Under the pieces are notes generated by a model that saw only the letters and a list, made by a program, of their open reading frames with translations, was not told the DNA's origin and ran no database searches. From the IMG/VR virus record IMGVR_UViG_2695420380_000016: a DNA stretch of 19,685 nucleotides; one strand, given 5' to 3'. Shown one piece after another: positions 1,267 to 19,685 of this stretch. How positions within the stretch are numbered: the stretch's first letter is position 1; the number at the start of each line of letters is the position of its first letter. Source of the stretch: a virus (Duplodnaviria > Heunggongvirae > Uroviricota > Caudoviricetes). The translations under genes and the position numbers were made by a program.

Positions 1267-1542
1267 TGTGGTGCTTTTTGTGGGAGTCATCCACTTACGC
1301 ACTTTGTTTTGCTATGCCAGCAGTTAGCTTCTGCTGTAAAACTATTCATGCAGCAAACCTGCACTTCACCACAATGGTTAGCATACTTTTCCTGATTAAG
1401 TTATTGCCAAATATGCTGGCCATTGTTTCATGTATTGGACCTCCTTACTATTTATTAAAGAGATCCAATATTCACCACTCTGTCTGTATCTCCACTCAGG
1501 CATCAGCCTTCTTCGTTATCGTATACAGACAAACTATGAATT

Positions 1543-1758
1543 TTAATCAGTAATGATGACATTTGCTGCTGCTGGACCTTTAGCACCACTCTCTACAGAG
1601 AAGGTAACCTTTTGTCCTTCAAATAAGGTTCGATAATTATCATTCTGAATCGCAGAAAAATGCACAAACACATCTTTACTACCATCAACAGGAGAAATAA
1701 AGCCAAAACCTTTATCAGCGTTAAACCATTTTACTAAACCAGTCATTTTATTTGACAT
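1543..1758 (-). CDS. cspB: cold shock protein CspB (CspA family)
   Basis: 71-aa product [71 protein letters not shown] carries the cold-shock-domain RNP motifs KGFGFI and VFVHF. Closest to remembered E. coli CspB. SD AAGGA lies upstream. Confidence 0.9.
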
Positions 1759-1960
1759 TCTACATTCCTTAACTTGAGCCTTTCGGCATAAATGGCTTGT
1801 ATAACAGAAACGACTTCGTACTTAATTGGAGAGACTCAAAGAAGGAATAAGTGAATAACACCTGAAATGAGAACTGCTTTAGTAAACTACTTCGTATATC
1901 GTCTGTTCTTCAAACCGACGCAATCATTAACGCATAGTTGAACATATGAAGCAATGTTTA
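1759..1960 (-). promoter_or_regulatory. cspB promoter and long 5' UTR region (inferred)
   Basis: About 300 bp AT-rich divergent intergenic region between cspB and cspF. CspA-family genes are known to have long regulatory 5' UTRs. Exact promoter elements not mapped here. Confidence 0.35.
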
Positions 1961-2693: not shown

Positions 2694-3446
2694 TTATCTC
2701 GTCACCTTTCTCAATTGTGCTTCAGCGTAAGATTCCTCCTGCCAGCACTTTGTAACCAGTTTATCAATGACATTTGCATATCCTTTATACCACTGATAAT
2801 CACTCAGGTCTGGTACCAGCTTCTGGACATGATGCCGCGCCAGTGTGGTTGGTAAACGACTAAACCGTTTTCCATTGCAACGCCCACAAATCTTATAAAC
2901 AGGTGTGCCATGAAGCCGGGTCCTTTTTTCATCCAGGACAATACCTTTACCCTTACACCCTCTGCACGCTGTGCTGACTTCTCCCTTACCATGGCAATGC
3001 TGACATAGTTCCTTCACCCACTCTTCTTTGATAACAGATTCCCCGCTTCTGGAGTGTTTCACCACTTCGAGCAATACATTATGAAATCCAGTACCAGCAC
3101 AATGCTCACAACGAGCCTTACTTGCCGCAGACCTGGAATAATCAGCAAAGGCAAAATTCACAAGGTAAGGAATAATCTGTAGCCGGGTTTCTTCACTCAA
3201 TTTATTCAATGTCGGGTTATCCAGTGCCATCGCGTAATTGAGCAGACCTTCAATCGCAAACTGAGGATCCTGAACACCAACTTTTGCCAGGAATAAGGCA
3301 AACCCAAGCGGTGCTTTCGACTGCACCATCCCCTGCGCAGCCATCACATCCGTAATCGTTAAACCACCAGAGCCTGTCGCCGGTGCGTCATCACTCAATT
3401 TTGGAGATTTTGGGGAGTAATATTTTGGTAAGGCTTCAAGGTTCAT
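2694..3446 (-). CDS. late-gene antitermination protein Q (phage 82 / QuuQ type)
   Basis: 250 aa with Cys/His clusters (CEHCAGTG, CQHCHGKGEVSTACRGCKGKG, CGRCNGKR). Sits between the DUF968 gene and the promoter-terminator module. Size matches remembered Qin QuuQ. SD GGAG upstream. Confidence 0.75.
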   Translation of the reverse strand: MNLEALPKYYSPKSPKLSDDAPATGSGGLTITDVMAAQGMVQSKAPLGFALFLAKVGVQDPQFAIEGLLNYAMALDNPTLNKLSEETRLQIIPYLVNFAFADYSRSAASKARCEHCAGTGFHNVLLEVVKHSRSGESVIKEEWVKELCQHCHGKGEVSTACRGCKGKGIVLDEKRTRLHGTPVYKICGRCNGKRFSRLPTTLARHHVQKLVPDLSDYQWYKGYANVIDKLVTKCWQEESYAEAQLRKVTR

Positions 3447-3459
3447 GCTCGTTCTCCAC

Positions 3460-4455
3460 TTACGCCAGTACGCCTATTGCCAGCGCACGATCGATAAAAC
3501 GAAATATCAGCTCCAGCTGGGAGCCATACTTCTCTTCAAATGCCACGGTATCCGCATGCAGCTCGTCGTGATGCTTTCTGCACAAAGGCAACACAAAAAG
3601 GTCATGCGCTTTTGTTCCCATTCCACCCTGACCGTGACCTATCAGGTGGTGGGGATCATCAGCGGGCTTTCCACAACATGCACACGGCTGTGTCTTAACC
3701 CAGCGCGTGTACTTTTCATTAACCCAGCGGCGACGTTTTGGGCGTAACATAAAAGACTCCGGCGACTCCGGATCCACTTTCAGCGCCAGCACCTTTTTCG
3801 CCTTATCCTGGATGATGCTGGTGGCAGGAACCGAAGGCACAAGGTCACTTTCCCGGGTGACAGACGGCACAACAGGCTTCGGTAATCTCAGTGCCTTACG
3901 GGCTGCACTTTCCGGTAAGGCATCCGCCAGGTCATTACGAATCAGCCACCAGCACAGTTCCGGCATTGTCACAACGTGACTGTCATCAAAACCGAGATCC
4001 CGACGCACAACAGACAACACCCAGCGGGCACAGTTATCCGTTGCCATTGATTCCAGCCGTTCCGTGAACTGATCGCGCAGCTGGTTATCGCAGTGCCAGC
4101 ACAGACGGATTGCACCCGGAGCGTGTCGCATTGTGGTCATGTTCTCGCTGTGCCAGTCGGAATGAGGCCTCTGGCAGCCTTTTTCACGAAGTAACCAGCT
4201 TTCAAGACATTCCACGCCACCAGCACGACGGATCACTGCCTCATTGCGGAACACGGCCCGAACGGCAGGATCATCCGCCAGCGGTTGTGATGCCGCCGGA
4301 ACGGCACCACTCGCGAAAGATGAATAACGCTCCGGCTCAGGCTCCAGCAGGACACGCCCCTGCATAAACAGGGGCATCAGCTCTGAACCTGGCCTGAACA
4401 ATACGATCCCCATACGCGGGGCAATTTCAGGGGTCAGTAGCGCTCTCACGGTCAC
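3460..4455 (-). CDS. DUF968-family protein (YdfU-like), Cys/His-rich C-terminus
   Basis: 331 aa. C-terminal block CACCGKPADDPHHLIGHGQGGMGTKAHDLFVLPLCRKHHDELH. Immediately upstream of Q, as YdfU is in Qin. Starts with GTG at 4455 directly after the upstream stop; true start uncertain. Confidence 0.65.
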   Translation of the reverse strand: MTVRALLTPEIAPRMGIVLFRPGSELMPLFMQGRVLLEPEPERYSSFASGAVPAASQPLADDPAVRAVFRNEAVIRRAGGVECLESWLLREKGCQRPHSDWHSENMTTMRHAPGAIRLCWHCDNQLRDQFTERLESMATDNCARWVLSVVRRDLGFDDSHVVTMPELCWWLIRNDLADALPESAARKALRLPKPVVPSVTRESDLVPSVPATSIIQDKAKKVLALKVDPESPESFMLRPKRRRWVNEKYTRWVKTQPCACCGKPADDPHHLIGHGQGGMGTKAHDLFVLPLCRKHHDELHADTVAFEEKYGSQLELIFRFIDRALAIGVLA

Positions 4456-4456
4456 C

Positions 4457-5266
4457 TCAATGAACGGTATCGAGCAGCTTTAACAGCTCAGGGAATCGGG
4501 ATTCGAAGAAATGCGGCTGCGTCTCGCGCGGATTTGCGGGACTGGTGATGTTCTTGCCGAACATGCAACCTTTCGCTGTCAGCGACCAGAATTTTTTGAT
4601 GTTGTTAATCGCGGTACGGCTGTATCGTTCGCGCTGCTCGACGATCCCCAGTTTCACCATCTGGTGATATGCCTGATTAGCCGTCAGGCGTATACCATAC
4701 TGTTTCAGCAGTGCGCTCAGTGACAGTGTCGGGCGACTTGAGCCATCGTGTGCATCAGCAGGAGCATCAATGGCATAGCGCGGTGCCAGATTCGGTAAGC
4801 CAACAGCCTCCTGGAGTTTCTGACAGGCACCAAGCACTGAAGAGTTAGACAGGTTTAACTCCCGGCGCATAAAGTCCAGCAGGATCACGCCAGCCTGCAT
4901 CTTGTCAGCAGCCTGTCCGGATAATTTTTCCGGTGCGCTGGTTACCATATCGAAAGTACGGATCACCTTCAGATGGAATGACGGGCTGATCCACATTGCA
5001 TAGGCATACACCAGTTCCTTGCAGACATACGTTCCCCGTTCATTTCCCCCATGAATCACACTCACCGGGTCAACACCCAAATTCTGGGTGTTGGTCAATT
5101 CATGAACAAGCTCAACAGTTTGTTGGCTGGAAAGAAACTTTCCCGGCTCCTTGGTTCTGGCATTTGCACCAGATGCTACTGCTGCGCGATGCAGATCGTT
5201 CAGGCTGTAACGCCCATAAGCATCACGACGAACTTCAATACCATCAATGACCATCAGATTATTCAT
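4457..5266 (-). CDS. KilA-N domain protein
   Basis: N-terminus IEVRRDAYGRYSLNDLHRAA...GGNERGTYVCKELVYAYAMWISPSFHLKVIRTFD matches the KilA-N DNA-binding fold pattern. Strong SD GAGGAG 10 nt upstream of the ATG at 5266. Confidence 0.75.
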   Translation of the reverse strand: MNNLMVIDGIEVRRDAYGRYSLNDLHRAAVASGANARTKEPGKFLSSQQTVELVHELTNTQNLGVDPVSVIHGGNERGTYVCKELVYAYAMWISPSFHLKVIRTFDMVTSAPEKLSGQAADKMQAGVILLDFMRRELNLSNSSVLGACQKLQEAVGLPNLAPRYAIDAPADAHDGSSRPTLSLSALLKQYGIRLTANQAYHQMVKLGIVEQRERYSRTAINNIKKFWSLTAKGCMFGKNITSPANPRETQPHFFESRFPELLKLLDTVH

Positions 5267-5285
5267 ACTTCGTTTCTCCTCTTAA

Positions 5286-5675
5286 TCAGGCGGCTGCACC
5301 CGCCGTTTTCTCGTACTTACTGATAGTGATCTCGACCTTCCCTTCCGGGATAACCGGTCCCCACTCCACCAGCATTCTTTTCACCTGACTGTCGTCCTCC
5401 CACACACCCGCGTGGGTCAGGGCGTCAAACAGCGCCTTGTTATAGTTGTCCAGATCGCGGATCCGGTTATCCGGAGGAAACAACACGATCTCCACTGAAG
5501 CAGGTGCCGACGTTGGTTTTGGCAGACGACGTAACTGCTCAACTATTGCTGCACACGCCGCGCTCTGGAATTTTCGCCCCGCCGCGCTTATCAGGCTCTT
5601 ACCTGCAAACGCCCCTTTGTTGGGGTGTCGCCAGTACGTGTTCACGCTGGGCGGAAAAGGCAGGATCAGCTTCAT
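5286..5675 (-). CDS. rusA: RusA-family Holliday junction resolvase
   Basis: 129 aa; LPFPPSVNTYWRH...RDLDNYNKALFDALTHAGVWEDDSQV matches the RusA pattern including the catalytic Asp cluster. Start overlaps the upstream stop as ATGA. Confidence 0.85.
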   Translation of the reverse strand: MKLILPFPPSVNTYWRHPNKGAFAGKSLISAAGRKFQSAACAAIVEQLRRLPKPTSAPASVEIVLFPPDNRIRDLDNYNKALFDALTHAGVWEDDSQVKRMLVEWGPVIPEGKVEITISKYEKTAGAAA

Positions 5676-5998
5676 GCTTTCAGGCCTCTCTCATGTAACC
5701 AGTGGGTTGCACGCAGCCTTGCGTTTTCCTCACCGGCAAGCAGTGAGCGGATAATCCCGACCGCCTCGCTGTCGTCGTCCTTCACCGCGGTATGAAGCGT
5801 TATCCCCCGGGCCACGCCACGCTTTATCGTGATGACGCCTTTTTTCTCCAGTGCGCGAAGATGCTCCACTGCTGCATTCACTGAACGGTATCCCAGCATG
5901 GTTGCCACCTCCTGATTGGTTGGCGGGAAGCCACGTTCTTTCTGGTAAGAAATCAGCATATCCAGCACCTGCTGCTGGCATTGAGTTAATGTCGTCAT
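5672..5998 (-). CDS. LexA N-terminal DNA-binding-domain protein (no peptidase domain)
   Basis: MTTLTQCQQQVLDMLISYQKERGFPPTNQEVATMLGYRSVNAAVEHLRALEKKGVITIKRGVARGITL aligns by eye with E. coli LexA residues 1-70 (LTARQQEVFDLI...[42 protein letters not shown]). The 108-aa product has no Ala-Gly/S24 module. ATGA overlap with the upstream gene. Confidence 0.75.
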   Translation of the reverse strand: MTTLTQCQQQVLDMLISYQKERGFPPTNQEVATMLGYRSVNAAVEHLRALEKKGVITIKRGVARGITLHTAVKDDDSEAVGIIRSLLAGEENARLRATHWLHERGLKA

Positions 5999-6648
5999 GC
6001 CGCCATCTCCCTGACCAGTTTTTCCGCCTGCTGGCGAACCTGCACCAGAAAGGCCTCACCACATGCCTCAAGTTCATCGCGCCCGATGTAGCTGATTGCC
6101 GGTCCCTTCCAGGTCTTGTCGAAAACAGCAATAGCACCAGCGAAGAAAGCGCCTGTCGGCACCTGCTTCTCGTCCTTCGGGATAAACCAGGCTGGCAGTT
6201 CAAAACCAATACGCCCGCGAATAAAAGCAATATGGTCTGCATCTTCCGGCCACCACACTTCGCTGGTGGCAGCTTTGATCAGGAAAACATAGCGCCCGCC
6301 TTTATCACGCATAGCACTGGCATGTTTCATGATGTAACGCATGCCGGTGATGTATTGCCCCTCATGCTGACTGGCGCGACTGTACGGGGGATTACCAAAG
6401 GCAGCACCTTTAAGCTCCGCAAGACGTTCTGACCAGTCATGCGCCAGCGCGTTGTCTTCCGCAGTGTAATAAGCGGCACATTTGGCGTTATCACCATCAG
6501 TAAACAGATCCAGAACAAACGGGCCAAACAGGGTGTTAATTCCCCAGAAAATGTTGTCCGGCGTGCGCCACTGATCGCCCACTTCCTTCAGTTCATGGGC
6601 TGGTTTGTTCCGCAGCTCCACCAGCGCCTGGCAATATTTATTACTCAT
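5995..6648 (-). CDS. phage Dam-type DNA N6-adenine methyltransferase
   Basis: Contains GNPPY, the (D/N)PPY motif IV of N6-adenine methyltransferases. Start placed at MSNKY (6648), which overlaps the upstream stop as TAATG; the track's upstream Met at 6681 would overlap the preceding gene by 34 nt. Confidence 0.75.
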   Translation of the reverse strand: MSNKYCQALVELRNKPAHELKEVGDQWRTPDNIFWGINTLFGPFVLDLFTDGDNAKCAAYYTAEDNALAHDWSERLAELKGAAFGNPPYSRASQHEGQYITGMRYIMKHASAMRDKGGRYVFLIKAATSEVWWPEDADHIAFIRGRIGFELPAWFIPKDEKQVPTGAFFAGAIAVFDKTWKGPAISYIGRDELEACGEAFLVQVRQQAEKLVREMAA

Positions 6649-7139
6649 TAAGCCCCCACGTAATTCCCTGACAGATACCACTCTTCACCCGATGCAGCGC
6701 GCTTGCTGCTTTTCCGTAAGCACCGCTCACGATGCGCCAGAAAATTGTTTCGTTCTGGCTGGGAGTGGCTTTCACGGAATGCCGCCATCCACACCGTTGC
6801 AGCACGACGGTATAAGCCCCTGGACTCCAGTTCTTCCGCCTGGCGGGTCAACAAAATCACCCGGGGATCGTTAGTGCCGACATAGAAATTGCGCACAGGT
6901 CTGGTTTCACGAACTGGTTGTGGTTCCGGCTCCTGCGCTCTCTCAGTCAGGCGCGGGAAATGTCTGCGTGTATCTACTTCACAACGGTGAGCCACACGCC
7001 CGCTCTGACGTAACTTGCTTGCTGACTGTAGAACGCGCTGCCGTGAGTAACCTGCAAAAGCATCCGCAATGTCTCCGGAAGTACACCCCGGATGGGCTTC
7101 AATGAATTTCTGAACGTCATTCAAAAGACTCATGCTCAC
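6648..7139 (-). CDS. hypothetical protein; C-terminal half weakly resembles PerC/ANR-type regulators
   Basis: 163-aa ORF, translationally coupled on both sides. Motif LLTRQAEELESRGLYRRAATVWMAAF is the basis for the tentative PerC/ANR resemblance. Occupies the slot where a helicase loader would sit in lambda. Confidence 0.5.
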   Translation of the reverse strand: MSMSLLNDVQKFIEAHPGCTSGDIADAFAGYSRQRVLQSASKLRQSGRVAHRCEVDTRRHFPRLTERAQEPEPQPVRETRPVRNFYVGTNDPRVILLTRQAEELESRGLYRRAATVWMAAFRESHSQPERNNFLAHRERCLRKSSKRAASGEEWYLSGNYVGA

Positions 7140-8077
7140 CCCCTGAATCCTGCCGGGATCTGGCTGTAGTCCACATTGTCGTAACTGGCTTTGAAGTACG
7201 GGTCTTCGCGTTTTTCTGTGTACGTGCTGATGGACGGCGATAAGCGCAGGGAAAGCTCATCCCATTTTTCCCGCAGCTTCGACGGGCTGAGCACGTTACG
7301 GCACCAGAACGGATCGCGGCTGATGCGGCTGTACATCTCGCAGATTTGTTTGTGAGTACGACCATCCTGCACACACATCAGGCGAATTTCGTTTGCCCAG
7401 GCTGTCCAGTTCGGTTCTTTGGGACGAACCACCTCGCCGTCACATTCGGCGGCCTGCTCGTACAGGGCGATGATTTTTTTCCAGAGCCACTGTGCGCAGG
7501 TCAAATCATCCTGCGTTCCCCACTGGCACTTTTTAGGGCTGAATACAACCGCATCAGGATGGCGAGTTAAAAAATCCTGTTCAGCCGTCTGCGTGTCCGG
7601 TTGCGAAACGTCCGGACGAGAAGGTTTTTTATCTGACGGATCATATTTTGATTTTACTGACGGATCCCCGCCAGATTCTGACGGGTGAAAACCCGCTTTT
7701 TTGCCAGATTTCGACGCATCAAATTTTGACGGGTCAGATTTTGATGCGTCAGATTTTGACGGGTCAGAATCTGACAGTTGAGAAAATGCCGCGGCCTGAA
7801 GCTTCGCAACGTTAAGCTGATAAACATTCGACGCATTACGGTTACCCTGGCGACGCGCCTTACGCGTTAACCAGCCTTCTGCTTCCAGCCGTGCAATAGC
7901 CGTTCTGACGGTACTCATCCCCGCGCCAATCTGGCGGGCAATGGTTTCAATCGATGGCCAGCACACACCTTCGTCATTACTGAAATCAGCCAGGCGGGCC
8001 ATAATTGCCACACTGGATAATTTCATGCCTGACGCTGCGCAACCATCCCATACATAGCCGGTTAATTTAGTGCTCAT
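7136..8077 (-). CDS. replication initiator / replisome organiser, O-like (N-terminal winged HTH, repeat linker, C-terminal domain)
   Basis: 313 aa. N-terminus has an HTH (SIETIARQIGAGMSTVRTAIARLEAEGWLTRK). The central linker SDSDPSKSDASKSDPSKFDASKSG is encoded by direct DNA repeats, as in lambda O where ori iterons lie inside the gene. SD AGAGG upstream of the ATG at 8077. Confidence 0.65.
   Translation of the reverse strand: MSTKLTGYVWDGCAASGMKLSSVAIMARLADFSNDEGVCWPSIETIARQIGAGMSTVRTAIARLEAEGWLTRKARRQGNRNASNVYQLNVAKLQAAAFSQLSDSDPSKSDASKSDPSKFDASKSGKKAGFHPSESGGDPSVKSKYDPSDKKPSRPDVSQPDTQTAEQDFLTRHPDAVVFSPKKCQWGTQDDLTCAQWLWKKIIALYEQAAECDGEVVRPKEPNWTAWANEIRLMCVQDGRTHKQICEMYSRISRDPFWCRNVLSPSKLREKWDELSLRLSPSISTYTEKREDPYFKASYDNVDYSQIPAGFRG
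7630..7780. repeat. iteron-like direct repeats (candidate ori) inside the O-like gene
   Basis: About eight imperfect copies of a TGACGG(A/G)TC core (ctgacggatc, actgacggatc, tctgacgggtg, ttcgacgcatc, tttgacgggtc, ttgatgcgtc, tttgacgggtc, tctgacag). The last four are spaced 15 bp apart. AT-rich stretches flank them. Confidence 0.5.
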
Positions 8078-8086
8078 GACCGACCT

Positions 8087-8425
8087 CTATTTCCCTGAAT
8101 TTACGACGAAACTGTTCGAGCGGGCTGAAGCACTCATGCTCATAGCCTTCGCGGAGGTAGATAACCCGTTGTGTTTCCGGTTCCCAACGAATGACTCTGA
8201 CGGGTACTCCGTAGTGATCTTTGAACCAGCGGTTAACTTGTCGCAAAGGACTGTCTCCTTCTGCCGGTTGAAATCACCCACAGCCCACTCAGCAAAGCTG
8301 TGGGTTACAATTTCCCTGTCACCTGGTACATTTACTGCATAGCAATACTCCACCTTCGCTTTTCCACCCGGTACAGGAAGCGCAATCAGTTGCGAGCGAC
8401 GGTAGTGTGTTGTTAAACTGTTCAT
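8087..8425 (-). CDS. hypothetical protein (early operon, between CII-like and O-like genes)
   Basis: 112-aa ORF with ATGA start overlap with the upstream gene; ends 10 nt before the O-like start. An antisense 90-aa ORF (8070..8342) overlaps it and the C-terminus is low-complexity, so the call is tentative. Confidence 0.4.
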
Positions 8426-9036
8426 GCGTTAGTTTCTCCACAACCAGAAGCAATCGACGCCACGACGCCCGGAGCTGCACACTCGCGGGCGTCATTACTT
8501 TCTGAAACGCAAAAAATTTTGTAGACAAGTGCTGCATGCTCCTGCAGCTTCGAAATTGAGAGGTACAGCTCGTCGTTAATTGCTGTCTTCTCATGCGGTT
8601 CCACTACACCGTCTTCGATTGCCGAACGAATCTGTTTTGAATAACTGCCGATCTGTTCAATGACTTCCAGTAAACGCTGGTTAATATCGGCATTGTCCAC
8701 ATCCTCGACGTCAGGAAGAGACACAAAGACGCCATTTGCAGACTGCGCCACAGCGTCAGCAATGAAGTGAGTGCCACCAGCACGTTGTAAAATCATTGCC
8801 CATCCCAGCGGGAAAATCTGATCGCCATCGGCACGAAGGCGGTTAAATAATGCGTTCTCTGTTACATCCAGCCAGTCAGCTGCTTCAGCGTAACCACCCG
8901 GCAACGCTGCGATAGTTTTTCTGACAGCTTTCACGTACCACTCAGGCTGTTTTTCTACTTTCCAGTGATACTTACCCACGGTTAGCCTCATCGTTCTGTG
9001 GTTTCTGTTAATCGATTTATCCATTAGATTTTTCAT
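8422..9036 (-). CDS. CII-like / CP76-type phage regulatory protein (start uncertain)
   Basis: Positioned immediately after the cro-like gene. Length and position fit lambdoid CII-like/CP76 regulators. Track ORF extends to 9093, overlapping cro by 76 nt; internal Met codons at 9036 and 9024 are more plausible starts. None has a clear SD. Confidence 0.5.
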
Positions 9037-9217
9037 AAAGCTCAGGTTTAAATGGCAACCGTCCGCAAGTTCTATATGCTGCTTCTGCTGCACGTCCTTT
9101 TGGAATTAACTGGCCCGGACGGTTTCGCCACTGATAAACGGCCTCAGTTGTTATGCCGAAAAAAGCAGCAACTTTCTCAATACTGCCGAAGTAGCTTTCG
9201 ATATCGTCAGTTGTCAT
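9017..9217 (-). CDS. Cro-like repressor, DicC type
   Basis: 66 aa: ...[56 protein letters not shown] resembles remembered DicC (YFGS..KLAQAAGI....Y.W......P.GRA). Divergent from the repressor gene. SD GGAGGG upstream. Confidence 0.7.
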   Translation of the reverse strand: MTTDDIESYFGSIEKVAAFFGITTEAVYQWRNRPGQLIPKGRAAEAAYRTCGRLPFKPELYEKSNG

Positions 9218-9315: not shown

Positions 9316-9942
9316 ATGGAAACGGTTGGTCAGCGTATAAAAGCTCTGAGAAGGGTTACCAGAACGTCCCAGAAAGAATTGGGTAAATTTTGTGGGGTAA
9401 GTGACGTTGCTGTGGGGTACTGGGAAAAAGACATCAATGTCCCTGGCGGGGAAGCACTTTCGAAATTAGCGAAGTTCTTTAATACGTCAATAGATTACAT
9501 TCTTTATGGTGCTGAGTTTGAAGGCAAACTAGTCACAAACATGCGCAGAGTTCCTGTAATTTCGTGGGTTCAGGCTGGGCAGTTTACTGAGTGCAGGGCA
9601 GCAGAAGTGTTTAGTGAAGTGGACAAGTGGGTAGATACATCTTTAAAGATTGGTGATAACTCATTTGCATTAGAAGTTAAAGGCGACTCCATGACTAATC
9701 CTAATGGCCTCCCAACAATACCAGAAGGTGCAACAGTGATTGTAGATCCTGATGCAGAACCTCGTCATGGAAAAATAGTCATTGCTCGACTTGATGGAAC
9801 GAACGAAGCTACAGTAAAAAAATTAGTCATCGATGGTCCTCAAAAGTTTTTAGTGCCATTAAATCCACGGTATCCCAACATCCCAATCAATGGTAATTGC
9901 CTGATCATTGGTGTAGTCAAAGGAGTTCAATACGAACTCTAG
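9316..9942 (+). CDS. CI-type prophage repressor (HTH_XRE N-terminus, S24 LexA-like peptidase C-terminus)
   Basis: 208 aa. N-terminal HTH (QKELGKFCGVSDVAVGYWEKD). Ala-Gly autocleavage site (VQAGQF). Catalytic Ser in GDSM and Lys in TVKKLV, as in lambda CI and LexA. Confidence 0.9.
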   Translation: METVGQRIKALRRVTRTSQKELGKFCGVSDVAVGYWEKDINVPGGEALSKLAKFFNTSIDYILYGAEFEGKLVTNMRRVPVISWVQAGQFTECRAAEVFSEVDKWVDTSLKIGDNSFALEVKGDSMTNPNGLPTIPEGATVIVDPDAEPRHGKIVIARLDGTNEATVKKLVIDGPQKFLVPLNPRYPNIPINGNCLIIGVVKGVQYEL

Positions 9943-14451: not shown

Positions 14452-17400
14452 TCACACGCTGCGCCTTCGAGAATATTCATTTAATCGCTGATAACGAACA
14501 TCTTGCTCCAGTTGTGGAGCAGCTTGAACAATTTGAAGCAAGCATTGCCCCAACTCTCGAGGCCCCCAGTGTTGTTCGGCAATCACGGCATTCAGCAGGG
14601 ATAGAGCGTCCGCAGGATATCGGCTGCAAATATCTGATTCTAGCAAAAGGCGAACGTCGTAGCTAAGGTGTTCGAGCGGTTGCAGCCAGTCCTGCACCAC
14701 TGCCAAAGCCGCCGGAAATTCACCTCGGGCAGCAATCACCATACGAGTCAACGATTCGGATATGCGTGGGGTGGCCAAGTTGCGGGACTTTGGCCAAACC
14801 TGTTGCCAAAATGGCTGGACACGATTTTTCCAATACTCCTCGCGCTGATCGCCCGCACCTTCAAGTGCCTGGTATAACGCCTGCGCGGCTACCTCCAGAC
14901 CTTCTTGTGGAAGAGCACTAATTGCCGTTCGGAACTCCTCCACGGTATATCCCTCGGTAGGGCCCAGAGCTGCATAAGTCAGGAAAGTAGCGAATTGCTG
15001 CCGGTGCTCGCCAAGATCAGAATAGTGATTGGCGCTCTCCAAAAAATCTGACTTGAAAGCTATCAGCAACGGTTCATACAGGCGTGGCGACCAGAGGAAG
15101 CCTTCCCACACAGCTTTTGCTTCGACGGGATTACTCCAAGCAAACAAGGGCAATAGATACTGTTCGGTCCAAGGTCGATCTACGCGAAAAAATGCGATCA
15201 GCCGCGACCCCAGCAACACCCGACCATGGCGGAATAGCTCTATCTGTACATTACACAATTTGGTGAAAAGTGTTTTCAATTCAACAGGAAGCAAATCATT
15301 GTCATTCGGGTTCTGTTTGAACCATAGGGTGATCAGTGATTGCGTGACATGCCCAATGGGATGATTGATCGCCGTAGAAACAGGATCATAGGTCTCAATT
15401 CCGTTTCGAATGGTGCTAGACTCTGGGCTTGTTTCTATCATCAGAACCCGACGACAAAGGGCCAGTAGAATCTCCTCGTGGCAGAGGATGGTCTTCGAAG
15501 CCTCCTCCATCCACCAAGTGACAGCGTGGGAAATCTCCTGAAGTACTGCGTCAGGCATGTCAAGCACCAACGGTGCGGCGTACCGCCACGAACGCAAAAT
15601 CATCCCTGGTTCAGCCCAAGTCTGCAGAGCTTCACGCCACCGACCAACAGGCCACACATCATCTTGTGATAGTTTACTTAACGCATACAGACTGTGAAAA
15701 AAGCGCGTACGGCAAACATCACTCCAAGTGTCCTCATAGAAAGGCAGTCTTTCTGGCATAGGCTTTGCGAGCCATTGCACTAATTCCTGCCACTTACGGG
15801 GCGCAATGTCGACATCTATACTCTCCTCGAAGCCTGGATCACCGGTTCCGCTCATCCAGTGAGAGAATTCATCACGCTCGTTGGTTGCCAGTTGCCATTT
15901 TGGGTATGCTGTGGATATTTCCGTCAAACGTGTAGCCGCAGACTCTCCCAAAACAAGGCCCGCTCCCCTGAGCTTCGCTAGACACAACCAGACGGAATGA
16001 GCCACCAAATAATGCCACCTGTCTGCTTCCAAATTATCCTCGTACATCTCGCGCGGAGGCCCTGCCAAGATAGCAGTTTCCAGACGCTCTTGTGCAATTC
16101 CTGTCAGATGTCGTCCCTGCAAAACAAACAGTCTGAATACCTCTCGCCTAGTATCCGTGGCCCACAACCACCATGAACCGTCCTCTAACAACCAATTAAC
16201 CCACCGCTCAGGTGGTATGCAGTTGTCTTGGCTTGCGGCAAACAGTGCCAGACGTTTGAAGGTGGGATATGGCAACTCAAACCAATTCTGAGCAATGCGC
16301 GTGGCCTGATCGCTGTCTTTGGATCGAACGGCTAACCATGAATCCCGAAGTAATTCAATCAGGCTCACCCAATCGCGGAACCCCCGGTTCTGCCAGTGCG
16401 GAGTGATGGACGGCAAATCCCAATGCGAGCGGTCGTGACGATCGTCGGACTCTCCCAACTCCCGCAACAAGTCCAGTGCATCACGCAACAACTGCTGAAA
16501 ATCTTCCAACAGGTATGGCAAGGACGATTTCCATGACTCGTCAGCAAGGTCGAACAGGGTTGAACGTACGTAATCAGCAGTCAGCACCAGCTCCCAATCC
16601 ACCAATTGCTTGATTCGCAAGGGTTCATCAGTGCTGCTCGAATCGTCTTCACTATAGCGAAACGGCCGCCTCAACATAACCTTGGGAGAAAGCAACTCGC
16701 GTAACTCCAAGCGCAATGTAGTCGTCAAGCCTTCATTCTTTAAGCGGTTTTGCCAACGATACAAATCCAGGTTCTGCAATGGCGATTTCACACGACCACT
16801 AAGCAGAAGCCGCCATAAAGTAGACATAGGTGGACCAGGAATAGCCAGGGGGGAATGCAAGAGAATTTCATCTAACTCAGAAGTCTTACGCTCCCGCATC
16901 AGTGCTGCTAAGCGATCTAGTTCGCTCTCAATCAGAAACATCCAACGGTCGTGTATTTGTCCGCCGCGTTCAGCAATCCATATGATCAACCTAGGGTCGC
17001 CCAGATAACGAACTAGCCAACGGGCTATATGGGACATTACGTCATCCCATTTGCTAGCACTGACACATCCAGAAACCAGCGACATCTGCGGGGCCAGCTC
17101 ATAGGGCGCAGGACGCTGAACCAGACTGAATCGGAGTTTCGGGTCAATTTCGACATGCGGAGATACACAAAAGCGTGGCAGATCGCTGTATTTAAATCGT
17201 TCGTCCGAGAAAGCTTTCAATAACCAATCCAGCGGCGGTGCAGGATTGAGTTCCGCAAAGCGTTTTGCTGGTAAACCTGATTTATCTGACAAGGCCCACA
17301 ACATCCGACCAACGAAATCGTCCTGACGAGTGCTGTCCTGCGGGCGGGCCAGAGCATGTTTGACGACTATAGCCTCTTTGCCCTGTATACCATCTCGATA

Positions 17401-18279
17401 AGTATCTGCCCAAGCGTGCAACGTTTGATGCAGCACTGAATGATCAGTGGAGCCCGCCGGTACGGTGTAAAGGATAGGAGTGACCCCTTTGGCCTCCCAC
17501 TCGATGGCTTTCCGGTGCTCCTGCCCCGGCTCACACTCCCCCAGTGCCCATACTTGTGGTGTGACTTCACCGAGCCTCCGATCTGCTGCAAGCGCATCCA
17601 TCATGTAGCGCAGTACCGGGTCGTTGATGCTGTAGCCAACGAAGCAGACCACATAGTTACGAAATAACTCACTCACAAAGCGAGCTGCCCAACGCTCAGT
17701 GAGATAAGCCAAGCCAAAGTCACCGCTGGTAACAACCAGACGATTCAGGGCAGTATCATCCGCCTTTTCCGGTAACAGCCCATGCAGGTATACAAGTCCA
17801 TCCCAGCGGCTGTTTTTTGGAATTGGCAGCATCGGCGCTACATAGGCCTGAAAAGCCTGGCCTGTACGTTTAGCTGCCACATGAAAGAGACGGTCAAAGT
17901 TGGTAGTGACCAATCGAAGGGCACCCTCGCGGCTACGGGCTAAACGTAACAGCGCCGCCTGAGTATCAATAGCGCCCCTACGACGGAGCTTTGGCTTAAG
18001 GGCTTTTTCCAACGCGCGTCGGACGGCTATACGCTGCCCTGGTAAGCGCCGTTCCAGCAAATCTAATGTGCCGTCAAATTGCCCACGCTCGAAAACCTCA
18101 CGCTCAATTTCTGAAAGTGTTGTTCCGTTCCTCTGGTAAATTAGTTCTACCAACCCTTTGAAACCAGGTAAACCAGCAGGGTAGGAAATGCCTGCTCCAC
18201 AGAAGAACACAACGCGCCCTTCCTCGTGCGCCTGCAAAAGCTCATCAGGAATATCAGGGCCGTTGGTAATGAATTGCAT
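14452..18279 (-). CDS. SIR2-like domain fused to a large helical C-terminal domain (1275 aa); candidate DSR-like antiphage NADase
   Basis: N-terminus carries SIR2_2-type motifs in order: VVFFCGAGISYPAGLPGFKGL (glycine-rich NAD loop), VTTNFDRLFH (catalytic Asn), VYLHGLL (catalytic His about 40 residues later), FVGYSINDPVL. The remaining 950 or so residues are helical and Trp/Leu-rich with no Walker A motif. Strong RBS GGAGGAAAAGGA before the ATG at 18279. Candidate -10 TATAAT on the minus strand at 18342-18347. Confidence 0.8.
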   Translation of the reverse strand: MQFITNGPDIPDELLQAHEEGRVVFFCGAGISYPAGLPGFKGLVELIYQRNGTTLSEIEREVFERGQFDGTLDLLERRLPGQRIAVRRALEKALKPKLRRRGAIDTQAALLRLARSREGALRLVTTNFDRLFHVAAKRTGQAFQAYVAPMLPIPKNSRWDGLVYLHGLLPEKADDTALNRLVVTSGDFGLAYLTERWAARFVSELFRNYVVCFVGYSINDPVLRYMMDALAADRRLGEVTPQVWALGECEPGQEHRKAIEWEAKGVTPILYTVPAGSTDHSVLHQTLHAWADTYRDGIQGKEAIVVKHALARPQDSTRQDDFVGRMLWALSDKSGLPAKRFAELNPAPPLDWLLKAFSDERFKYSDLPRFCVSPHVEIDPKLRFSLVQRPAPYELAPQMSLVSGCVSASKWDDVMSHIARWLVRYLGDPRLIIWIAERGGQIHDRWMFLIESELDRLAALMRERKTSELDEILLHSPLAIPGPPMSTLWRLLLSGRVKSPLQNLDLYRWQNRLKNEGLTTTLRLELRELLSPKVMLRRPFRYSEDDSSSTDEPLRIKQLVDWELVLTADYVRSTLFDLADESWKSSLPYLLEDFQQLLRDALDLLRELGESDDRHDRSHWDLPSITPHWQNRGFRDWVSLIELLRDSWLAVRSKDSDQATRIAQNWFELPYPTFKRLALFAASQDNCIPPERWVNWLLEDGSWWLWATDTRREVFRLFVLQGRHLTGIAQERLETAILAGPPREMYEDNLEADRWHYLVAHSVWLCLAKLRGAGLVLGESAATRLTEISTAYPKWQLATNERDEFSHWMSGTGDPGFEESIDVDIAPRKWQELVQWLAKPMPERLPFYEDTWSDVCRTRFFHSLYALSKLSQDDVWPVGRWREALQTWAEPGMILRSWRYAAPLVLDMPDAVLQEISHAVTWWMEEASKTILCHEEILLALCRRVLMIETSPESSTIRNGIETYDPVSTAINHPIGHVTQSLITLWFKQNPNDNDLLPVELKTLFTKLCNVQIELFRHGRVLLGSRLIAFFRVDRPWTEQYLLPLFAWSNPVEAKAVWEGFLWSPRLYEPLLIAFKSDFLESANHYSDLGEHRQQFATFLTYAALGPTEGYTVEEFRTAISALPQEGLEVAAQALYQALEGAGDQREEYWKNRVQPFWQQVWPKSRNLATPRISESLTRMVIAARGEFPAALAVVQDWLQPLEHLSYDVRLLLESDICSRYPADALSLLNAVIAEQHWGPRELGQCLLQIVQAAPQLEQDVRYQRLNEYSRRRSV

Positions 18280-18461: not shown

Positions 18462-19685
18462 TCATTTCGAGCCTGAACGAGTACAAGTAACAATCGATTC
18501 AACTCTCTCCCACCATGCCTGGTAGGCTTTACGCTGTTCTTCTAGATAATCACTCTTGTCATAAACTTGCCATACACCTGGCAGTTTATGACCGAGCATT
18601 ATTTCAGCAATATGAGGCGCAGTAAGATCAGAAAAGTTTGTTCGTGCTGTTCGTCTCAAATCATGAAGAGACCAATGAGGAAATTGATACCCCAAACGCC
18701 GCCATGCGTACTGCATTAAATTGTAAGGCAGCGACTGCAATGATGTCCGACCAACTGGTTCCCTGCTTCCTTCCTTAGTAAAAAGCATATCGGAACCGTT
18801 GTTCATAGAGATAACGTATTTTATAAGCTCTTCAACCGGTTCAATAATGGGCCGCTTTAGCGGTTCGCCTGTTATATCCCCTGTCTTATGTCGTTCTGGT
18901 GGTACAGTCCATATTTTATTAATGAAATCAAAATCGTCCACCTTGGCAGTAATTAGCTCTGAACTACGGCAACCAAAATGCAGCAATAGTTTAATGAAGG
19001 CCCGGTATTTAGGAACCATTCGAGAACCATCGATCGCAGCATAAAGGATTTTAATTTCATCATGTGTCAGAAACCGTTTCTTCTGACCTTTACGGATATC
19101 CATATCTTTACCCGTGATATCCGACAGCGGGCGAGTTTCAATGAGCTTTCTCTTATACGCCCAGACATGGGCCTGCTTTGCGTTAATTAGCAATCGGTCT
19201 GCTATTGCTGGAGTCTTAGTGCTAAGAGGCTCCAGGACTTCTAACCAATCATGCAATGTAGCTGCATCGTGAGGGATATTCCCGATTTTAGAGAACAGGT
19301 GCAGCTCAAACGAGCGGAGTATCTGTTCAGAACCTTTTTTATTTTTTACACAATATGCTTCATACCAAGCACGGATCACAGATTCTACCGTCATGGCTTC
19401 AGTAGCTTTACGTTTTTCTGCCAGCTTGACCAATCGTGGATTGCGGTTTGACTCGAGTTCACCACGAAGACGGATAACTTCTTCTCTGGCCTCTTTTAGT
19501 CCAGTTGCCGGGTAAGTTCCGATATCAAGACGCTCACCTTTCCCCGCCCACTGATAACGATATTGGAACACTACGCGACCTTTCGGTGATACTCTAACAG
19601 ACAGACCATCACGATCGGATTTAACCAAAACCTTATCACGTTCCTTTCCAACAACTGAACGCAACCACGCATCAGACAGCGCCAT
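18462..19685 (-). CDS. tyrosine integrase, P4-like (DUF4102 arm-binding N-terminus plus catalytic domain)
   Basis: 407 aa. N-terminus MALSDAWLRSVVGKERDKVLVKSDRDGLSVRVSPKGRVVFQYRYQWAGKGERLDIGTYP fits the P4-family arm-binding pattern. C-terminus has catalytic-domain motifs (HDLRRTARTN..., GHKLPGVWQVYD with the Tyr). The ATG is the last three bases of the window, so upstream signals and att are outside. Confidence 0.85.
   Translation of the reverse strand: MALSDAWLRSVVGKERDKVLVKSDRDGLSVRVSPKGRVVFQYRYQWAGKGERLDIGTYPATGLKEAREEVIRLRGELESNRNPRLVKLAEKRKATEAMTVESVIRAWYEAYCVKNKKGSEQILRSFELHLFSKIGNIPHDAATLHDWLEVLEPLSTKTPAIADRLLINAKQAHVWAYKRKLIETRPLSDITGKDMDIRKGQKKRFLTHDEIKILYAAIDGSRMVPKYRAFIKLLLHFGCRSSELITAKVDDFDFINKIWTVPPERHKTGDITGEPLKRPIIEPVEELIKYVISMNNGSDMLFTKEGSREPVGRTSLQSLPYNLMQYAWRRLGYQFPHWSLHDLRRTARTNFSDLTAPHIAEIMLGHKLPGVWQVYDKSDYLEEQRKAYQAWWERVESIVTCTRSGSK

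Follow-up and report, generated by a model that had tools for sequence, protein, structure and literature searches.

Replication origins located within initiator genes are textbook knowledge for lambda, phi80 and P22 (the literature on the origins of lambda and Stx phages is summarized in PMC7466680), and in new lambdoid genomes repeats are routinely taken as the sign of such an origin (PMC8022706). A comparable element was recognized in a Caudoviricetes sequence of 19,685 nucleotides (nt), the IMG/VR record IMGVR_UViG_2695420380_000016, which is called the window below. In this window an array of short repeats (7671-7777) lies inside an O-like replication initiator gene (7136-8077, minus strand), and it is read here, with a probability of roughly 0.8, as the initiator-binding part of the replication origin of a lambdoid prophage, placed inside the initiator's own gene. 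An earlier note on this DNA had proposed iterons of an origin at this place, and every comparative test that was run came out in favour of them. The origin is well supported and in itself unsurprising, and its newness is in the different family of the initiator N-domain, the tighter 15-bp palindromic units, the GATC-bearing candidate unwinding repeats and the lack of a partner loader gene.

Bacteriophage lambda is similar in that its iterons are imperfect dyads lying in the part of gene O that encodes the interdomain linker, with an AT-rich region on the promoter-distal side, and in that lambda O is a two-domain initiator, the C-domain of which is homologous to that of the window protein. The differences concern the N-domain, which is of the Phage_rep_O family in lambda O and of the HTH_36 family in the window protein, and the repeats, since lambda has four iterons of 18-19 nt at 20-24 bp, whereas the window has five tandem units plus one isolated unit, 11-13 nt long and at a strict 15-bp period. 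The AT-rich part of the window is composed of 24-bp repeats beginning with GATC, unlike that of lambda, and the P gene which follows O in lambda does not follow in the window. In phi80 (gp15) and P22 (gp18) four gp15 binding sites or a rep_origin are likewise annotated inside the initiator gene, and the iteron sequence shifts with the N-domain between phages, which is the classic lambdoid pattern. Both of these initiators have Phage_rep_O N-domains, and their genes are followed by one for a loader in phi80 (gene 14) and by one for a helicase in P22 (gene 12); in a pairwise comparison P22 gp18 was not significantly similar to the window protein. The homologue name 'Replication protein 15' had suggested phi80 gp15 as a member of the same N-domain family, which was rejected, as the C-domain alone is shared.

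In the origins of iteron plasmids (RepA, pi, RepE) a winged-helix initiator acts on a repeat array that has an AT-rich unwinding region beside it. As a rule, plasmid iterons are direct repeats of ~19-22 bp with a phasing of some two helical turns, lie in non-coding DNA and are bound by monomers, while the units of the window are palindromic, 15 bp apart and inside coding sequence. In gene 18 of phage L, six imperfect 11-bp repeats TGTCCAACGGA were proposed as the origin from the sequence alone (PMC8022706). The protein and the repeat both differ from those of the window, for which the inference also has synonymous-site, frame-shift, symmetry and swap evidence over ~80 genera-level homologues.

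About eight copies of a TGACGG(A/G)TC core had been claimed within the O-like gene, and eight positions were found. On the plus strand the exact core TGACGGRTC occurred at 7634, 7658, 7727 and 7757, with one mismatch at 7679, and degenerate copies at 7712 (CGACGCATC), 7742 (TGATGCGTC) and 7772 (TGACAGTTG). The spacings of these copies were 24, 21, 33, 15, 15, 15 and 15 bp, all multiples of three and in one reading frame; the strict spacing claimed for the end of the array also held, each copy from 7712 to 7772 being 15 bp from the next. Six of the 12 window-wide matches to TGACGGRTC with at most one mismatch fell inside 150 bp, where ~0.05 would be expected (scaled from a shuffle mean of 6.19 matches per window). 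Tandem Repeats Finder reported 7705-7768 with a period of 15 in 4.3 copies (score 86) and a period of 30 in 2.1 copies (score 100), the strongest tandem repeat of the window, while the other three scored 35-39.

The repeat unit itself had to be redefined: although the TGACGG(A/G)TC copies are present, the best-conserved unit is instead a near-palindrome, (G)TCA(A/G)AATCTGA(C), of 11-13 nt on the sense strand, which straddles two TGACGGRTC units. Five tandem 15-bp units were delimited at 7704-7777 (minus strand) from the tandem repeat search, conservation and dyad symmetry, their cores on the sense strand being, in order, TCAGATTCTGA, TCAAAATCTGA, TCAAAATCTGA, TCAAAATTTGA and TCGAAATCTGG. A 22-nt spacer CAAAAAAGCGGGTTTTCACCCG (7682-7703, minus strand; a small GAAA-loop hairpin plus T6 lies on its plus strand) separates them from an isolated sixth iteron core TCAGAATCTGG, in the context CACCCGTCAGAATCTGGCGG (7671-7681, minus strand), which was revealed by a core-motif scan. 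Elsewhere in the 19.7-kb window the core occurred nowhere with one mismatch or none, and three times with two. As a specificity control, a core-mutated unit is proposed in which TCAAAATCTGA is changed to TCCAAATCGGA.

The stretch 7660-7683, with the sense strand CGTCAGAATCTGGCGGGGATCC, resembles a sequence shared by lambda and phi80, CGTC(A/C)GAGAATTCTG(G/A)CGAATCC (L169 655-690; L173 8778-8810). In those two phages it lies just right of the AT-rich regions, and its order relative to the AT-rich part differs in the window. The likeness of the isolated iteron and its flank to the lambda/phi80 sequence may be a coincidence or a remnant of shared linker ancestry.

The gene that holds the array, taken from the open reading frame (ORF) list, encodes 313 aa, and its product gave a full-length match to PHROG 391, 'replication initiation O-like' (E 5e-134). 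The genes of the Shigella phages SfIV (gp41) and SfII were 98% identical to it. The N-domain (aa 1-100; 7778-8077, minus strand), which was delimited with Pfam, AlphaFold2 (AF2) and Foldseek, is presumed to be the origin-binding domain. It matched HTH_36 (PF13730) at residues 23-70 with 42.9 bits, above the Pfam cut-off of 25, and had no match to Phage_rep_O (PF04492), the family to which lambda O, phi80 gp15 and P22 gp18 all match. The AF2 model, made from an alignment of 23 homologues, gave a winged-helix fold with the topology H-H-H-H-strand-strand over residues 1-98, where the block-mean predicted local distance difference test score (pLDDT) was mostly 75-89. The nearest structures found by Foldseek in the PDB were winged-helix DNA binders of MarR/ArsR type; this search returned generic winged-helix regulators and no solved initiator relative, and a sequence search of the PDB with the O-like protein gave weak MarR matches only.

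The C-terminal helical domain (aa 163-280; 7238-7591, minus strand) was defined by BLASTP to lambda O and phi80 gp15 and by the AF2 model. Residues 166-277 of the window protein were 39% identical to residues 171-270 of lambda O (E 6e-25), within the P-interacting domain of the latter, and the C-domain of phi80 gp15 was 35% identical to the window protein (E 2e-25). The block-mean pLDDT of this domain was 71-93 over residues 191-280 and 56-64 over residues 163-190. Since the N-domain is of HTH_36 type and the C-domain is homologous to lambda O, a different origin-binding domain and a lambda-type C-domain are combined in one protein, and the identification as an O-like initiator was borne out by the PHROG 391 match together with both domains. 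Residues 103-162, located between the two folded domains, had a pLDDT below 50 and are predicted to form a disordered linker, encoded by the array and the AT-rich repeats; the 'linker-coding' position given to the repeats in the earlier note agrees with this. The repetitive peptide attributed to the array was also recovered, as residues 101-125 (LSDSDPSKSDASKSDPSKFDASKSG).

Conservation of the array was followed in homologues from annotated phages and from one genome per species (80 loci with 52-100% N-domain identity, in many Enterobacterales genera). The diversity of the homologues came from this genome-collection scan, and an IMG/VR scan with the N-domain alignment, which gave 80 loci with identical N-domains, was used for copy-number and single-nucleotide polymorphism (SNP) patterns only. 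Homologous genes without the repeats, which the earlier note had named as evidence that would speak against an origin, were not encountered: a 15-bp-period array starting at gene nt 270-420 was present in 72 of the 76 intact genome homologues, and the remaining four had dispersed copies of the palindrome. The 417 core sites of 84 genes lay between gene nt 304 and 427 (5th-95th percentile).

A repetitive array inside a coding sequence might also be a low-complexity peptide linker of SDPSK type which had grown by replication slippage, the DNA itself being functionless. All eight copies of the window are in one frame, encoding (D/H)(P/A)S(K/E/V/D), 412 of the 417 core sites of the homologues are in frame 0, the segment encoded by the array is predicted to be disordered, and the copy number runs from 4 to 9 and more, as slippage predicts. 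The array contained 4 to 6 units among the 80 near-identical IMG/VR copies, nine 15-bp units in a Providencia locus (L150), seven in phage 733R5 (L005), and 9.3 copies of a 30-bp unit (4.7 of 60 bp) in Tatumella saanichensis (L163), and the copy number is clearly labile.

Against slippage of a peptide-coding repeat stands the conservation of synonymous positions, by which the array far exceeds the structured N-domain. Third positions were compared at identical amino acids in 551 pairs whose arrays were equally long and whose N-domains had diverged; their mean synonymous identity was 0.87 for the array/linker versus 0.46 for the N-domain, the array value being the greater one in 551/551. Against phiNP, 43/51 third positions of the array were identical, compared with 54/99 of those of the N-domain. 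The codon choice was also extremely skewed: Ser was written as TCA or TCT in 83% of cases in the array and 35% in the rest of the gene, Lys as AAA in 97% and 67%, and Asp as GAC in 70% and 43%, respectively. SNPs in the tandem units of the near-identical copies fell mostly in the variable spacer of 2-3 nt, with two in degenerate cores.

The peptide, in turn, changes by lineage (SDPSK, SEPSK, SGRPE and VDPSN), and the central DNA core and its dyad persist in most lineages. In the VDPSN type (L174) the inner bases are changed, while the outer GTCA/TGAC and the dyad symmetry are kept, and a palindromic encoding would have no reason in a peptide. One lineage keeps the DNA site in a different frame: in L159 the isolated-core site CACCCGTCAGAATCTG is read in another frame as TRQNLT instead of HPSESG, the frame being restored downstream, and in L007, from the same lineage, the variant ACCCTTCAGAATCTG is read as TLQNLT. 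An out-of-frame core copy was found in this lineage only, and the reading-frame evidence is supportive but thin. The comparison of homologues showed the repeat DNA to be under purifying selection beyond the need of the peptide, with a large and uniform effect. Because the synonymous-site, codon, frame and SNP evidence is large and uniform, a purely peptide-level explanation, including slippage, is very unlikely, and the array is further considered as a DNA element.

Dyad symmetry was seen in the aligned sites. The dyad centre is the A of GA-A-TC, and positions +/-1, 3, 4 and 5 were complementary in 61-85% of sites, versus 25% by chance; this symmetry would fit the binding of a dimer, like that of the lambda iterons. 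The flanks of the repeat differ among N-domain subtypes yet stay symmetric, with different wing residues as well, and at least four or five repeat variants track the N-domain subtypes, among them GTCARAATCTGAC, GTTCAGAATCTGAAC, CCTCCAGAATCTGGAGG and GTCAA-NNN-TTGAC, each with its own recognition helix and wing. The window group has the repeat GTCA(A/G)AATCTGAC and the recognition helix STVRTAI, three homologues (L008, L158 and L164) have GTTCAGAATCTGAAC and STVITLI, three others (L160, L161 and L168) have CCTCCAGAATCTGGAGG and STIRGAM, and L174 (protein P0036) has GTCAA-NNN-TTGAC and STVKSAI. In Providencia and Proteus the repeat is TCAAAATCTGT(Y).

L174 is a natural chimera with respect to the window, as its N-domain and array are ~65% identical and the gene from nt ~436 to the end is ~99% identical. 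The similarity of phiNP stops at gene nt 479, and mEp460_4F5 shares gene nt 443-942 only, so that a mosaic junction zone between the N-domain/array cassette and the C-domain could be placed at 7599-7645 from these three sequences. The L174 swap and the shared junctions, those with phiNP and mEp460_4F5 lying where the array ends, make the N-domain plus the array one exchangeable specificity cassette, and both are shown by this comparison to be inherited and exchanged as a unit, in the classic lambdoid manner. A distant HTH_36-type 'O' gene, that of phage 24B, has three 21-bp repeats GGGGTGGGGCAGGAGCTGCCC (L170 1727-1792) at the equivalent gene position. The 24B repeats hold the palindrome GGGCAG-GAG-CTGCCC, and the 'O' gene is followed there by a large helicase-type 'P' gene (annotated with a Gp4D helicase region).

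On the promoter-distal side of the iterons, two 24-bp AT-rich repeats, GATCCGTCAGTAAAATCAAAATAT and GATCCGTCAGATAAAAAACCTTCT (7619-7666, minus strand), were identified from the GC minimum, the duplex stability and the homologues, and both of them start with GATC and share the opening GATCCGTCAG. The lowest GC of the O-like gene (0.30) is at 7620-7659, and the least stable 40-mer of the gene lies in 7619-7666, at the 97th percentile of the window. Some more divergent homologues have the 24-bp unit as 2-3 tandem copies, with 3.1 perfect copies in L160, and homologues sharing this unit carry different 15-bp repeats. As the unit is kept where the 15-bp repeats differ, its role would be independent of N-domain specificity and most simply unwinding, which suggests the 24-bp repeats as a candidate DNA-unwinding element.

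GATC sites occur at 7639 and 7663, one in each 24-bp repeat, and a gene for a Dam-family N6-adenine methyltransferase (PF05869, E 1e-45) is located at 5995-6681 (minus strand), ~0.45 kb downstream of O. A phage Dam gene is just downstream of O in many annotated relatives, and a methylase gene was seen next to or close downstream of the O-like gene in phiNP, Klebsiella phage 1 LV-2017, 733R5, YeP2 and L172. Methylation control of origin firing is possible.

Synonymous constraint shows that nucleotides are selected, not for what purpose, and the array could be a cis-acting element other than origin iterons, such as an autoregulatory or copy-control operator of the O-like protein, binding sites of another protein of phage or host (SeqA or Dam, for instance, acting on the GATC repeats), or a signal at the RNA level, carried by the O mRNA or by an antisense transcript. 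The paired GATC sites with the phage Dam gene downstream would suit such an element, and the constraint is compatible with an RNA. However, the palindromic units vary and travel with the adjacent winged-helix domain, pointing to this domain as the binder, and replication initiation is the only recognizable role of the O-like gene. The position of the array also matches the origins of lambda, phi80 and P22: it occupies gene nt 301-407, while the annotated iterons occupy nt 349-433 in lambda and 365-441 in phi80. Rfam had no family at the array, the local RNA hairpin is weak and unconserved, and the window contained no other candidate iteron cluster. A cis-acting element of another kind is quite unlikely on this evidence, and origin iterons remain the preferred reading. 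Like the lambdoid origins, the locus has repeated dyad-symmetric sites between the initiator domains, a moderately AT-rich flank on the promoter-distal side which would melt easily, and an iteron sequence that is specific to the N-domain and exchanged with it.

The downstream neighbours of the gene are where the locus departs from the lambdoid arrangement, for no gene of a helicase loader (P) or helicase directly follows. None of the window genes was P-, DnaB- or DnaC-like, and tblastn with lambda P gave no match in the window. A loader gene next to the O-like gene was also absent from SfIV, phiNP, Klebsiella phage 1 LV-2017, Eeyore, 733R5, YeP2 and L172. The replication module appears to consist of O only, though this O has a C-domain homologous to the part of lambda O that binds P.

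If the array is an origin, dimers of the winged-helix N-domain would occupy all six palindromes, the isolated one included, giving a nucleoprotein complex like the O-some, which would strain and open the AT-rich repeats beside it (7619-7666). Through its lambda-O-type C-domain the initiator might then recruit the replicative helicase, presumably the host DnaB since P-, DnaB- and DnaC-like genes are absent, loaded via the host DnaC or an unrecognised partner. Transcription of the rightward operon through the gene may help to activate the origin, as in lambda. A more specific form of an 'O-only' lambdoid replicon, in which the complex at the array recruits host DnaB-DnaC directly or via a small partner and firing is gated by adenine methylation at the paired GATC sites by the host or phage Dam, is speculative and rather unlikely.

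Several points weigh against reading the array as an origin of this kind. The Pfam family of the N-domain differs from that of lambda O, and reports of binding, unwinding or origin activity in the HTH_36 O-like family were absent from the searchable literature. The C-domain is of lambda type without an accompanying helicase loader gene, which leaves the step after binding unexplained. A period of 15 bp does not correspond to whole helical turns and is shorter than the 20-24 bp of lambda, and neighbouring palindromes almost abut, which makes the dimer dyad ambiguous, centred on a 1-bp or a 2-bp spacer. The AT-richness is moderate (GC 0.30), and several intergenic regions of the window melt more easily. 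The homologues share phylogeny, so their counts are not independent, and the co-variation of repeat and N-domain may partly reflect linkage rather than co-adaptation, as the N-domain adjoins the array.

The earlier note had also pointed to a GNRA-loop hairpin plus T6 lying antisense within the array (7682-7701). The hairpin exists as CGGGT-GAAA-ACCCG at 7682-7695 (plus strand), followed by CTTTTTTG, but it is weak and unconserved. With a 5-bp stem, four GC pairs, a GAAA loop and the CTTTTTTG tail, it fits a simple terminator pattern, and the stretch 7682-7703 (plus strand) could be taken for an active intrinsic terminator, or for the place where a small antisense RNA that counteracts O expression ends. 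Its folding, however, was no more stable than that of shuffled sequence (z -1.1, with 24 of 200 shuffles folding as well), terminator-like matches in the region were near chance (5 found, 2.6 expected), and no promoter-like site was found upstream on the plus strand. Of 84 homologous regions only 5 had a comparable antisense hairpin, and in the near-identical copies L019 and L043, as in phiNP, it is disrupted by point changes. Lacking the stability above chance and the conservation of an intrinsic terminator, it was rejected as one, a terminator or RNA end here being extremely improbable, and the hairpin is probably incidental to the conserved motif TTTT(C/G)ACCCGTCAG. Rfam and tRNA scans of the O gene gave no match.

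The O-like gene is part of a minus-strand early-right operon (window 2694-9093) of a typical lambdoid kind. On its upstream side are a cI-like repressor (9316-9942, plus strand), a Cro-like regulator, a CII/YmfL-like protein and a small protein, and downstream of it follow PerC-like, Dam, LexA-like, RusA, KilA-N, HNH/DUF968 and Q-like genes. The small gene directly upstream of O (8087-8425, minus strand, 112 aa) belongs to PHROG 1170, the function of which is unassigned, and had no match in Pfam; in RefSeq and PLSDB annotations of related records, L172 and many from E. coli among them, the O-like gene adjoins at its start a gene for a 'DUF4222 domain-containing protein'. The product of 8087-8425 is a candidate partner of the initiator.

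Two other loci of the window were observed besides the operon. One is an Rfam cspA thermoregulator (161 bits against a gathering score of 78) at 1476-1919 (minus strand), overlapping a 71-aa ORF (1543-1758) which is presumably a prophage-carried cold-shock protein gene. Another is the gene of a 1275-aa SIR2-domain protein (14452-18279, minus strand), which matched the PADLOC Dsr1 model over its full length with 2735.6 bits and adjoins the integrase gene (18462-19685, minus strand); going by this match, it is a prophage-borne anti-phage defence gene beside the integrase.

The segment composed of the N-domain and the array had matches in 2006 of 5426 complete E. coli genomes (37%), 95-99% identical in most records, and in 1576 of these 2006 the match covered at least 80% of the segment. 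The module is also present in the serotype-converting Shigella phages SfII and SfIV. RefSeq labels the protein only as 'helix-turn-helix domain-containing protein' and leaves the origin unannotated. Neither the origin nor the repeat sequence was found described in the literature, subscription-only papers being outside the search, and the genome paper of SfIV does not discuss an origin. In the plasmid database no mini-replicon based on this module alone was found, and the matches there were prophages, circular phage genomes (one of ~44 kb was inspected) and excised e14 (15-kb 'plasmids').

Truncated copies of the gene were observed as well. In an E. coli record (L143, CP178308) only N-domain residues 1-79 match (99% identical) and the ORF then continues with unrelated sequence, which may be terminase-like as read by eye. 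A 15.2-kb circle (L171, OR902851) has genes of e14 type (mcrA, an invertase and an icd fragment) and an 80%-identical N-domain without the array, and is taken as excised e14. This arrangement is probably that of ymfN in e14. Truncated copies probably contribute to the partial matches among the E. coli genomes.

For the biology of these prophages, the locus is an example of tolerated overlapping coding, in which a cis-acting DNA element is packed into the sequence encoding a disordered linker, as such a linker leaves the DNA free for cis signals. It would be a natural example of the co-evolution of initiator and iteron specificity, with a ready swap pair in the window and L174, and it raises the question of how a lambda-type O C-domain loads the helicase without P. 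Once pinned down, the origin would offer a precise point at which the induction and replication of the prophage could be studied or blocked, and it is also a candidate for a compact replicon.

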